A DNA stretch of 64,000 nt, from the IMG/VR virus record IMGVR_UViG_3300036834_000231, positions 32,283-96,282 of that record. The stretch is one strand, 5' to 3'. Positions 33,088 through 34,380 of the stretch are shown in pieces; the stretch's first letter is position 1; each line of letters starts with the position of its first letter. The translations under genes and the position numbers were made by a program. This DNA comes from a virus. Under the pieces are notes generated by a model. That model had not been told where the DNA came from. It saw only the letters and a program-made list of their open reading frames with translations, and made no database searches.

Positions 33088-34380
33088 TTGTCGAAAAAGA
33101 ATGACCTTTCGGCCTCGGAAAAAGCTGTCAAGGCGCTGGTGAAGCAGGACAAGCCGGCGCCGGAAAAACACCCCATCGTCTGCGTGCAGTGCGCGAAACA
33201 GGCCATGATCGCGAAACGCCCGCCCACCGGTTGGAAGAACCACGAAGAGGCGTATTGGTGCAGCGAGTGCTGGAACAAGCGCTATGTGCTGCGCGCCATC
33301 TCGCTCGAGGTTACCCAGTCGATGGATTGCACTTGGGACGAGCTCTTTAAGAAGCTCAAGGTCATGTGGGAGCAGACGACGCAATTGAGCAATTATCTGG
33401 TGACTCAGCTCGTCATCGCCGACGTGCACCGCCGCCCGAACGAAGCGAAGAAACCCGCCGAAGACCCGAATAAAATGCCCGGCCGGCCCGAGACGTACTT
33501 TTATCCCGAACTCGGCGAACAGTTTCCCGATCTGCCGCCGCCCGTGCGCGCGAGCTTAGAGAAGAGCATCACGGCGAAGTACAGCAAAAAACGCTGGGAC
33601 GTCATCTGGTCCTGCCGCGCGAGCTTGCCGATCTTCCGCTACCCGCAGCCTTATCCCATCCCGGCGCAATGCTGGTCCGCGGAGCTTGTCGACGGCTGGC
33701 CGATCGTCAACATGCGCATCGGCGAAGGGCGCCTGCGCTTGCGGCTCAAAGGCATGCCGAAGTATAAGCGCCAGTTGATCAGCTTTCGGGATATCTTGCG
33801 GGGCTACGCGGTCCCGGGCGAAGCCGCGTTGTATGAAAAGGGCTCGACCCTCATGTGCAAATTGGTCGCCTGGCTGCCGCGCCGGGCGCAGGACGGCAAC
33901 TATGGGGACAACGTGCTCTTCGTGCGTTCCACGCCCGACGCCTTGCTCGCCGCCTTAAATGTGAAGGAAGAGAAGCTCTGGCAGTATCACGCCAGCCATA
34001 TTCACAATTGGATCGCCGAACACCGCCGGCGCTTGCAGGAGTGGGCCGACGACAGCAAGGCCGAAGCCCGCCCGCATCCCGCTTTGAACGCCCGCCGGGC
34101 GGCCGCCGCCACGAAGTACCACCACCGCATGAATACTTGCGCCGATCAAGCCGCCAGCTACCTCGTGCGCTATGCCGTGCGCCGCAAATACGGCGTCTTG
34201 CGCTATGACGACTCCGATAAGAGCTGGTGCCCCTTATTCGTCTGGTTCAAGCTGGAGGATCGCATCAAAACGCTGTGCGACGAGTTCAATGTGCGCTTTG
34301 AGAAGGTCGAACCCGCCGCCGCCGAAGGTACTGAAACTACTAAAACCAAGGGTAGAAAGAAAAAGGCCATGCCCGCGTAG
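33088..34380 (+). CDS. Nuclease-dead Cas12f/TnpB-like RNA-guided DNA-binding protein (430 aa)
   Basis: N-terminal CxxC..CxxC; Cas12f-like WED/REC segments (LEVTQSMDCTWDELFKKLKVMWEQTTQLSN; SLPIFRYPQPYPI; FRDILRGY); RuvC-I GID replaced by FVRS; KYHHRMNTCADQAASYLVRYAVRRKYGVLRYDD (helix plus RuvC-II, E to D); WFKLEDRIKTLCDEFNVRFEKVEP; ends before the TNB zinc finger and RuvC-III. Confidence 0.75.
   Translation: MSKKNDLSASEKAVKALVKQDKPAPEKHPIVCVQCAKQAMIAKRPPTGWKNHEEAYWCSECWNKRYVLRAISLEVTQSMDCTWDELFKKLKVMWEQTTQLSNYLVTQLVIADVHRRPNEAKKPAEDPNKMPGRPETYFYPELGEQFPDLPPPVRASLEKSITAKYSKKRWDVIWSCRASLPIFRYPQPYPIPAQCWSAELVDGWPIVNMRIGEGRLRLRLKGMPKYKRQLISFRDILRGYAVPGEAALYEKGSTLMCKLVAWLPRRAQDGNYGDNVLFVRSTPDALLAALNVKEEKLWQYHASHIHNWIAEHRRRLQEWADDSKAEARPHPALNARRAAAATKYHHRMNTCADQAASYLVRYAVRRKYGVLRYDDSDKSWCPLFVWFKLEDRIKTLCDEFNVRFEKVEPAAAEGTETTKTKGRKKKAMPA

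Follow-up and report, generated by a model that had tools for sequence, protein, structure and literature searches.

The stretch of viral DNA considered here (the window) comprises 64,000 nucleotides, the right-hand 64 kb of a 96,282-bp IMG/VR virus record whose completeness is estimated at 86%. It carries a gene for a Cas12f-like protein, followed by a predicted scaffold RNA and a putative guide array, and the sequence supports a two-part module of the gene and its RNA locus (Table 1). The protein is probably a nuclease-dead, C-terminally truncated descendant of Cas12f, belonging to a soil phage or phage-plasmid, that binds its targets under RNA guidance without cutting them. This interpretation is built on the fold, the lost catalytic elements, purifying selection, the linkage of gene and RNA, covariation within the RNA and perfect matches of relatives' guides to their own or co-resident genomes. 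From these we infer RNA loading, DNA binding, absence of cleavage, a repressive outcome and, in the window, the use of very short repeat units as guides. The initial annotation of this DNA had proposed a domesticated Cas12f-like protein; the proposal is supported but too narrow in one respect, as the gene is half of a module with scaffold RNA and guide array.

Direct sequence searches with the protein returned no useful match in Pfam (E up to 10), PHROG or PDB. An AlphaFold (AF2) model built from an alignment of 33 homologues has a predicted local distance difference test score (pLDDT) of 90.4 and a predicted template modelling score (pTM) of 0.80. Foldseek matched AsCas12f at E 1.7e-17 with a template modelling (TM) score of 0.6. 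VIA-align sets model residues 67-414 against residues 1-380 of the 422-residue AsCas12f chain, with 325 residues aligned and Z 23.5; the natural dead Cas12f (dCas12f) of Bacteroidota (PDB 9n9m, chain A) gives Z 22.8, with model residues 60-407 facing the entire 365-residue chain. Across the solved Cas12f1 effectors the scores are Z 21-23.5 over about 330 residues, and for more distant folds they are Z 16-17 (ISDra2 TnpB), 14.5 (Cas12k) and about 12 (Cas12m). The model displays the WED-REC-RuvC order of Cas12f. A profile of the family matches OsCas12f at E 1.1e-11 and the natural dCas12f at E 1.9e-6, and the relationship is therefore one of true homology to Cas12f, beyond a common fold. The likeness to AsCas12f1-type proteins, first noticed by eye, is thus borne out by structure prediction, structural alignment and profile alike.

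The catalytic elements of the RuvC domain are altered or missing. In the profile alignment the G-V-D-M-G of RuvC-I in OsCas12f faces L-F-V-R-S, with Arg280 in place of the Asp, and the M-E-D of RuvC-II faces Y-D-D, with Asp374 in place of the Glu. Among 217 family members, position 280 is most often occupied by R (127), K (17), T (16), H (11), S (10), A (8) or Y (5), neither Asp nor Glu being among these seven commonest residues; position 374 is D in 160 members, N in 19 and E in 4. The chain ends one helix and one strand past RuvC-II, about 40 residues before the end of AsCas12f. Those last ~40 residues of AsCas12f contain the TNB zinc finger and the third catalytic Asp, and because the chain stops before them, the TNB and RuvC-III segment appears to be absent. 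The TNB zinc finger (PF07282) gave no Pfam match at E up to 10, nor was it found in 33 members. The initial annotation had called both replacements and the missing C-terminus, and all three stand. Judged from sequence and from the self-targets that relatives tolerate, the protein is almost certainly non-cutting, or dead.

At the other end of the chain, the N-terminal zinc finger suspected earlier proves to be a Cys4 zinc ribbon, with four short strands in the model; C32, C35, C58 and C61 are kept in 181-198 of the 217 members. VIA-align finds no counterpart for residues 1-60 in solved Cas12f or TnpB chains, and the ribbon is specific to this family. A further motif, D322-x-K324-x-E326, is nearly invariant (D 214, K 201 and E 195 of 217) and is not conserved in the Cas12f sequences of the profile alignment.

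The family is large. An exhaustive HMMER search gave at least 860 cluster representatives (50% identity), and the 150 best of these are nearly all of the truncated size of ~400 amino acids or shorter; annotated database matches carry no Pfam domain. Relatives were found on 22 IMG/VR contigs (23-214 kb), 71 soil metagenome contigs and seven contigs of metagenome-assembled genomes (MAGs), six of the last labelled Acidobacteriota or Bryobacterales and one Saccharibacteria. Neither 50,697 GenBank phage records nor 72,556 PLSDB plasmids contain a family member. A profile search of 5.8 billion proteins returned family members only, without a Cas12f or TnpB outgroup, and public protein searches gave no full-length, TNB-bearing close relative. 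Pairwise ratios of nonsynonymous to synonymous substitution (dN/dS) within the family are 0.09-0.29, which points to purifying selection.

These data bear on the reading of the gene as a decaying, functionless relic of a TnpB or Cas12f gene, which would account for the loss of the catalytic residues and the C-terminus. The frame is intact, as had been stated initially, at least 860 diverged clusters share its length and motifs, dN/dS is as given above, and the partner RNA is conserved and covaries. The conservation data already refute this reading, which is exceedingly improbable. Domestication rather than decay, which the initial annotation favoured and for which it had suggested dN/dS among homologues as a check, agrees with the fold, the profile homology, the loss of three RuvC elements and the selection on the protein.

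The second half of the module is a predicted RNA. The sequence 3′ of the stop codon stays conserved between loci whose proteins are 30-45% identical, and a scaffold of ~150 nt is present in 68 of the 75 loci with 200 nt or more of sequence downstream, starting mostly 3-26 nt past the stop. A covariance model gave 88 matches, all on the gene strand. In the window the match (model R1) spans 34390-34527 with 89.4 bits (E about 1e-18), is the sole copy in the 96-kb genome and contains an 18-nt insertion in a central stem-like region. RNAalifold, applied to a MAFFT alignment of 13 loci, predicted 20 pairs, 18 of them with compensatory changes. In the 88 matches 94.4% of cells are paired, against 70.9% in shuffles, compensatory double changes occur in 12 of 13 pairs, and the signal collapses in slid-partner controls; fitting to the model biases this alignment towards the structure, and the independent MAFFT and alifold result agrees with it. 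A single-sequence fold of the window scaffold is not better than shuffles (z = 0.26), and the predicted structure rests on covariation, not on energy. The flanks of 28 family loci have no protein family in common, Cas1 and Cas2 not having been specifically searched for. Because neighbouring protein families are not conserved, the mobile unit appears to consist of the gene and the sequence after it.

The scaffold leads into a palindromic repeat of 36 nt, and four architectures are found downstream. Many loci have the repeat and a single guide only. Roughly 25-30 loci have a canonical CRISPR array, with 2-13 repeats of 36 nt and unique spacers of 35-38 nt. Others display tandem units of the whole scaffold, among them locus L103 with four copies and L117 and L069 with three each. 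The units (L103:813-1683, L117:475-1340 and L069:2274-4511) are spaced about 250-420 nt from one another and look less like CRISPR arrays than like omega-RNA arrays, such as those near the dCas12f-sigma-E clade (PMC10691335). In the fourth architecture the arrays keep only the 3′ 7-12 nt of the repeat; these are found in L003, L005 and L006, at the tails of L001 and L022, and in the window. Duplicated spacers occur in the canonical arrays of L011, L106, L061 and L078. A second copy of the L027 array, 91% identical, lies at a contig end of the MAG to which L027 belongs (G001:C11:1-588; L036 and L040) with its spacers 3 and 4 internally duplicated.

Guides of several relatives have perfect or nearly perfect targets. 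Two spacers of L027 match other contigs of the same 8.1-Mb MAG: spacer 3 (36/36) the first gene of an operon encoding an O-like initiator and DnaB, next to an integrase gene, and spacer 4 (35/35) an XRE-type regulator gene of a second element. Both elements carry an integrase, and the 5′ flanks of the two protospacers are CTTT and CTTC. Spacer 1 of L026 (37/37) matches a divergent intergenic region on its own contig (41.8 kb), at 6.3 kb upstream of the effector gene, and spacer 1 of L021 (34/34) a site in the same provirus between a ParB-like gene and the effector gene, just upstream of the latter. The guide of L103 matches (27/28) a site just downstream of the effector gene of L095. Spacer 1 of L066 matches phage L018 (34/35), antisense to a tRNA 3′ end and 470 nt downstream of a tyrosine integrase gene, and also its own locus (33/35), where both mismatches fall at spacer positions 5-6, next to the repeat. 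The tRNA fragment near the L018 integrase is like an attP core. None of the fragments concerned (L066:6324-6358, L066:7104-7138 and L018:9792-9826) is a complete tRNA gene.

Relative to the genes hit, targets fall on either strand, which fits DNA and not mRNA as the target. A perfect protospacer on the same molecule would be tolerated by a binder and not by a nuclease that cuts double-stranded DNA; this is the strongest indirect evidence that the protein is dead. It also bears on the alternative that the protein is active, with a rearranged acidic site (D374, D375, D322 and E326) capable of nicking, single-strand cleavage or processing of precursor CRISPR RNA (pre-crRNA). A non-canonical RuvC triad occurs in Cas12m, which reportedly processes its crRNA itself. 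The four acidic residues are 74-99% conserved, so that a rearranged site is possible and counts against a dead protein, and rearranged yet active sites are known in several TnpB and Cas12 branches (PMC10691335). Set against this are the RuvC-I position, which is variable and mostly basic, the absence of the RuvC-III/TNB segment that completes the site in every solved active relative, and the perfect protospacers that share a contig with the array. Activity of this kind is considered quite unlikely.

In the window the scaffold is present and the array consists of 7-12-nt half repeats, in contrast to the canonical arrays of relatives; the tandem-repeat scan of the window lists no canonical CRISPR-type array. 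There are 58 plus-strand units of GCYTCGG and almost none on the minus strand of the region, whereas the remaining ~94 kb of the genome has 31 on the plus strand. In its extended form the consensus reads GG-t-R-GCYTCGG-K. The units are spaced by 16 to 80 nt with a median of 31, which leaves a median spacer of about 19 nt if the unit is 12 nt. The mini-repeats share homology with the 3′ end of the CRISPR repeats, 36 nt long, in relatives. Comparable half repeats are GGAAGCTGCGGG in L003 (17 copies, ahead of the scaffold) and GGTCACYTCGGG in L005 (21 copies). Identical spacers follow the repeats at 36243 and 36271, within a tandem duplication (Table 1). The possibility that the GCUUCGG units form UUCG tetraloop hairpins was rejected, as the flanking bases are unpaired and half of the units are GCCUCGG. 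A guide function is suggested by homology with canonical arrays and is supported by the published 9-11-nt guides of nuclease-dead TnpB relatives (10.1101/2023.11.30.569447; 10.64898/2026.09.22.753285). The mini-repeat array is the most unusual and least explained element of the module.

Complementarity suggests how such units might join a single scaffold. L003, L004 and L005 each have a half repeat complementary to the 5′ half of their repeat 1, the half joined to the scaffold. The 3′ half of repeat 1 is diverged in L003 and L005, and the 5′ half would thereby become available for pairing in trans. Two candidate anti-repeats are present in the window. The first, CCTGGGGGC (34515-34523), lies at the homologous position in the 5′ half of repeat 1, and its pairing involves G:U pairs and a bulge of 2 nt; the second, CCCGAGGCT, is the exact complement of the mini-repeat AGCCTCGGG. 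In both, the sole variable base of the repeat (Y) stands opposite G. Either may be the anti-repeat. Because the half-repeat array of L003 lies upstream of its scaffold and three orphan scaffold loci occur elsewhere in the same phage, pairing of repeat and scaffold need not be in cis. The orphan scaffold-like stretches of this 46.6-kb phage (96% complete), at about 4.4-5.2, 20.4-20.7 and 43.4-43.9 kb, are far from the effector gene; two of the three adjoin half-repeat stretches, and all three look like dispersed guide loci.

It is proposed that the dead Cas12f would assemble with RNA transcribed just downstream of its gene, a ~150-nt scaffold that ends in the repeat hairpin, and that guides would sit 3′ of the repeat's final 7-12 nt. 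The complex would bind and remain on complementary double-stranded DNA flanked by a short 5′ motif, leaving it uncut, whereby transcription or access to a site (an attachment site, for example) would be blocked, whether of the phage, of rival mobile elements or of the host. In the window phage the usual array of 36-nt repeats would have been compacted to 58 units, each a repeat 3′ end plus about 19 nt, and, like crRNA with trans-activating crRNA (tracrRNA), these repeat ends would pair in trans with the one scaffold by way of an anti-repeat. More tentatively, the 2-kb region may represent a new kind of guide array, one of ~58 pre-trimmed crRNAs (7-12 nt of repeat and a ~19-nt guide) that are trans-paired to one scaffold through a wobble-tolerant anti-repeat and that grows by unit duplication and by some route other than Cas1-Cas2; this is possible, though on balance doubtful. 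If it is true, a single 430-amino-acid dead Cas12f could silence dozens of sites of the host or of rival elements simultaneously, and one protein family would display, in its mini-array, canonical CRISPR arrays and tandem omega-RNA-like units, a continuum linking the guide systems of CRISPR and TnpB.

The same units can be read as an anti-defence decoy, in which the dead effector and its scaffold absorb crRNAs of a host Cas12f and the 58 repeat ends act as sponges akin to RNA anti-CRISPRs. Solitary phage repeat units and a RuvC-inactivated phage Cas9 with its own tracrRNA have been proposed as CRISPR inhibitors (PMC11656645), and the mini-repeats keep only the repeat end, with irregular and sometimes tiny spacers. 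A decoy is nevertheless very unlikely: since no full-length, TNB-bearing close relative was found in public proteins, a matching host system is not known; the 150 best of the 860 representatives are almost all truncated, as described above; and the real arrays of relatives match mobile elements and their own genomes.

Another outcome of binding would be delivery of a partner, the complex bringing an integrase, a partition or replication factor or RNA polymerase to the site, with the zinc ribbon or the DxKxE motif as the dock. Cas12k recruits Tn7 transposases, and dCas12f recruits sigma-E. The L066 spacer that matches an attP/attB-like tRNA 3′ end beside the integrase gene of L018, and the L021 self-target between the ParB-like and effector genes, would suit such a role. 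So would two published observations, that inactivated TnpBs are linked to tyrosine recombinases and attachment sites and that the region corresponding to the lost TNB/RuvC-III segment is the partner docking site in dCas12f-sigma-E (PMC10691335). The 28 loci have no conserved protein neighbour, no sigma factor, Tn7 gene (tnsB, tnsC, tniQ) or integrase is found among the scanned neighbours of the window gene, and other targets lie within ordinary genes (the XRE regulator and the first gene of the replication operon). Delivery is thus judged unlikely.

Returning to RNA-guided binding without cleavage, several further points weigh against it as set out here. The locus of any member is absent from the listed public RNA runs, and transcription, processing and loading are predictions; in three soil runs, DNA contigs hold the same phage, without array variants. 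No target was found for the window's 58 spacers or for the 22-nt guide after repeat 1. Compared with its own 96-kb genome, the array has longest matches of 11-14 nt, which look like chance. In 137 genomes of the order of MAG G001 all matches are at E >= 0.006 per genome and are noise, as in the three unpublished genomes of that set (G042, G121 and G125), which gave noise only. Exact 21-mers of three window spacers gave no target in IMG/VR, and GenBank phages gave one match, at E 0.6. The half-repeat spacers of L003 and L005 have no self-target outside other copies of the array or scaffold. Some units are too close together for a guide, with spacing of 16-21 nt in the window and 13 nt in L005. 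The mini-repeats descend from the hairpin repeat, and their complementarity to the scaffold is inherited and is not independent proof of pairing in trans. The L027 targets are on other contigs of the MAG, where co-binning may pool different cells, and flanking motifs differ between systems, so that a family-wide protospacer-adjacent motif cannot be stated.

Of the known systems, Cas12f1 (the type V-F effectors AsCas12f, OsCas12f and SpCas12f1) gives the best structural and sequence match. Common features are the WED-REC-RuvC order, the small size, a large structured RNA beside the gene, the 36-nt-repeat CRISPR arrays of relatives and the T-rich 5′ flank of the two L027 protospacers. The present family differs in that it lacks the RuvC-I Asp, the RuvC-II Glu, RuvC-III and TNB, has the extra zinc ribbon, is phage-borne and has its scaffold fused to the first repeat instead of a separate tracrRNA. 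By sequence it would lie outside Cas12f proper on account of the RuvC triad and TNB.

The dCas12f-sigma-E system (PDB 9n9c, 9n9m; PMC13472631, PMC10691335) is likewise nuclease-dead, with the same C-terminal truncation and a guide RNA beside the gene, and tandem whole-scaffold arrays as in L103, L117 and L069 have been described for that clade. Unlike it, the family has no rpoE (an extracytoplasmic function, or ECF, sigma factor with a C-terminal extension) among the scanned neighbours and no conserved partner, retains CRISPR arrays, has the zinc ribbon, and is found in phages and MAGs of Acidobacteriota rather than in Bacteroidota chromosomes. It is not a member of the sigma-E system, as the partner gene is missing. 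Because the profile matches dCas12f more weakly than it matches active Cas12f, inactivation separate from that of the dCas12f-sigma-E clade is possible.

TldR proteins (10.1101/2023.11.30.569447, 10.64898/2026.09.22.753285) also have a dead RuvC, a truncated C-terminus and an adjacent guide RNA; some are on temperate phages, and their natural guides match promoter regions of the same cell. TldRs are of direct TnpB descent and have one fixed guide and conserved partners (fliC, oppF, csrA), whereas the present family is nearer to Cas12f than to TnpB by structure score (Z 23 against 16-17), has multi-guide arrays and has no fixed neighbour. It is thus set apart from TldR by its probable descent, by the number of guides and by the neighbour. 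The sole indication of promoter-proximal repression of the TldR type is the L026 target in a divergent intergenic region.

Cas12m (type V-M) is larger and, at Z about 12, structurally distant. Its RuvC site is kept in modified form, and it is not known to use a tracr-like scaffold. A functional parallel lies in the L027 spacers, whose targets in other integrated elements are a regulator gene and a replication operon: Cas12m and the type IV systems of plasmids and prophages are effectors of mobile elements that silence rivals by binding without cutting (PMC11656645). For Cas12k, the fold match is Z 14.5, no Tn7-like genes lie among the scanned neighbours of the window gene, and there are dozens of truncated-repeat units instead of one. 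In the CRISPR-associated transposon (CAST) of type V-K, a 2021 study by Saito and colleagues reportedly described a dead effector with a delocalised truncated repeat and short spacer directed at a tRNA gene, to which the L066 spacer for a tRNA 3′ end is a parallel. The kind of mechanism proposed is that of TldR, dCas12f and Cas12m, RNA-guided binding without cleavage.

A literature search, whose coverage was incomplete, found no description of a phage-borne, array-bearing dead Cas12f capped by a zinc ribbon; type V-U branches with altered sites (PMC10691335) may overlap the family. Natural dead derivatives of TnpB and Cas12f (TldR, dCas12f-sigma-E) were recognised only in 2023-2026, and few clades have been characterised. 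With this family a large clade would join them, one confined to soil phages that are uncultivated and to MAGs of Acidobacteriota. Of interest are the multi-spacer arrays that have been kept, the targets (rival integrated elements, a tRNA fragment resembling an attachment site and the genome of the phage itself) and the three or four guide-array architectures on a single protein scaffold. The half-repeat arrays bear on the interconversion of CRISPR arrays and omega-RNA and on guide acquisition without Cas1-Cas2. A 413-amino-acid protein with a compact array format could become a small tool for multiplex CRISPR interference.

Table 1. Features of the Cas12f-like module in window coordinates
Feature	Position	Strand	Evidence
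Gene for Cas12f-like protein	33088..34380	+	Open reading frame, translation, 413-amino-acid database form, Cas12f matched by fold and by profile
N-terminal Cys4 zinc ribbon, residues about 28-62, CxxC at 32-35 and 58-61	33169..33273	+	Model, column counts
RuvC motif I remnant, F278-V-R280-S	33919..33930	+	Profile alignment to OsCas12f, column counts
D322-x-K324-x-E326 motif, family-specific	34051..34065	+	Counts in 217 members
RuvC motif II remnant, Y373-D374-D375	34204..34212	+	Profile alignment, column counts
Predicted guide-RNA scaffold into repeat 1 hairpin (about 34514-34551)	34390..34551	+	Covariance model; covariation in relatives
Candidate anti-repeat CCCGAGGCT	34544..34552	+	Sole minus-strand motif occurrence in 34300-35700 scan; inverted repeats I1-I3
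58 GCYTCGG mini-repeats	34573..36554	+	Strand counts, homology to CRISPR repeats of relatives
Tandem duplication of 28-nt repeat-plus-spacer unit	36238..36306	+	Tandem Repeats Finder: 2.5 copies, 97% matches

The protein has 430 amino acids if translation starts at TTG 33088. The public gene call has 413, and the start deduced from this length is GTG 33139. AAGG stands 5 nt ahead of this GTG and TATAAA lies at 33080-85, and with these the GTG start seems at least as likely as the TTG. The extended -10 sequence that the initial annotation had pointed out, TGATACTGT, is present at 33072-33080 and is omitted by the consensus promoter scan; around the gene, the scan for consensus promoters and terminators gave no usable signal. 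The sole consensus promoter of the region (33058-33031, minus strand) would serve a small divergent gene at 32791-33012 (minus strand), which is back-to-back with the Cas12f-like gene and encodes a heptad-rich product of ~73 amino acids without a family match.

The surroundings are phage genes and no transposase was seen near the Cas12f-like gene, in line with the earlier remark that no tnpA was recognised nearby. Phage genes in the window include those for the large terminase, the portal, an N6/N4 DNA methylase and two Uma2-family proteins. Rfam at gathering thresholds gave no known RNA family across the 64 kb, hammerhead ribozymes at 20256-20841 included, and a tRNA gene search of the window found none. 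The large terminase (955 amino acids, 43839-46706, plus strand) displays Hint and intein-splicing domains at residues ~357-625, between Terminase_6N and Terminase_6C, and its gene is, by these domain matches, split by an intein. The Uma2-family genes, putatively restriction endonuclease-like, adjoin each other on the minus strand (38846-39358 and 39355-40182). Two longer tandem repeats were also recorded, one with a 93-nt unit at 19129-19302 (1.9 copies, 93% matches) and one with a 168-nt unit at 58023-58378 (2.1 copies), the latter within a 934-amino-acid open reading frame at 57635-60439.

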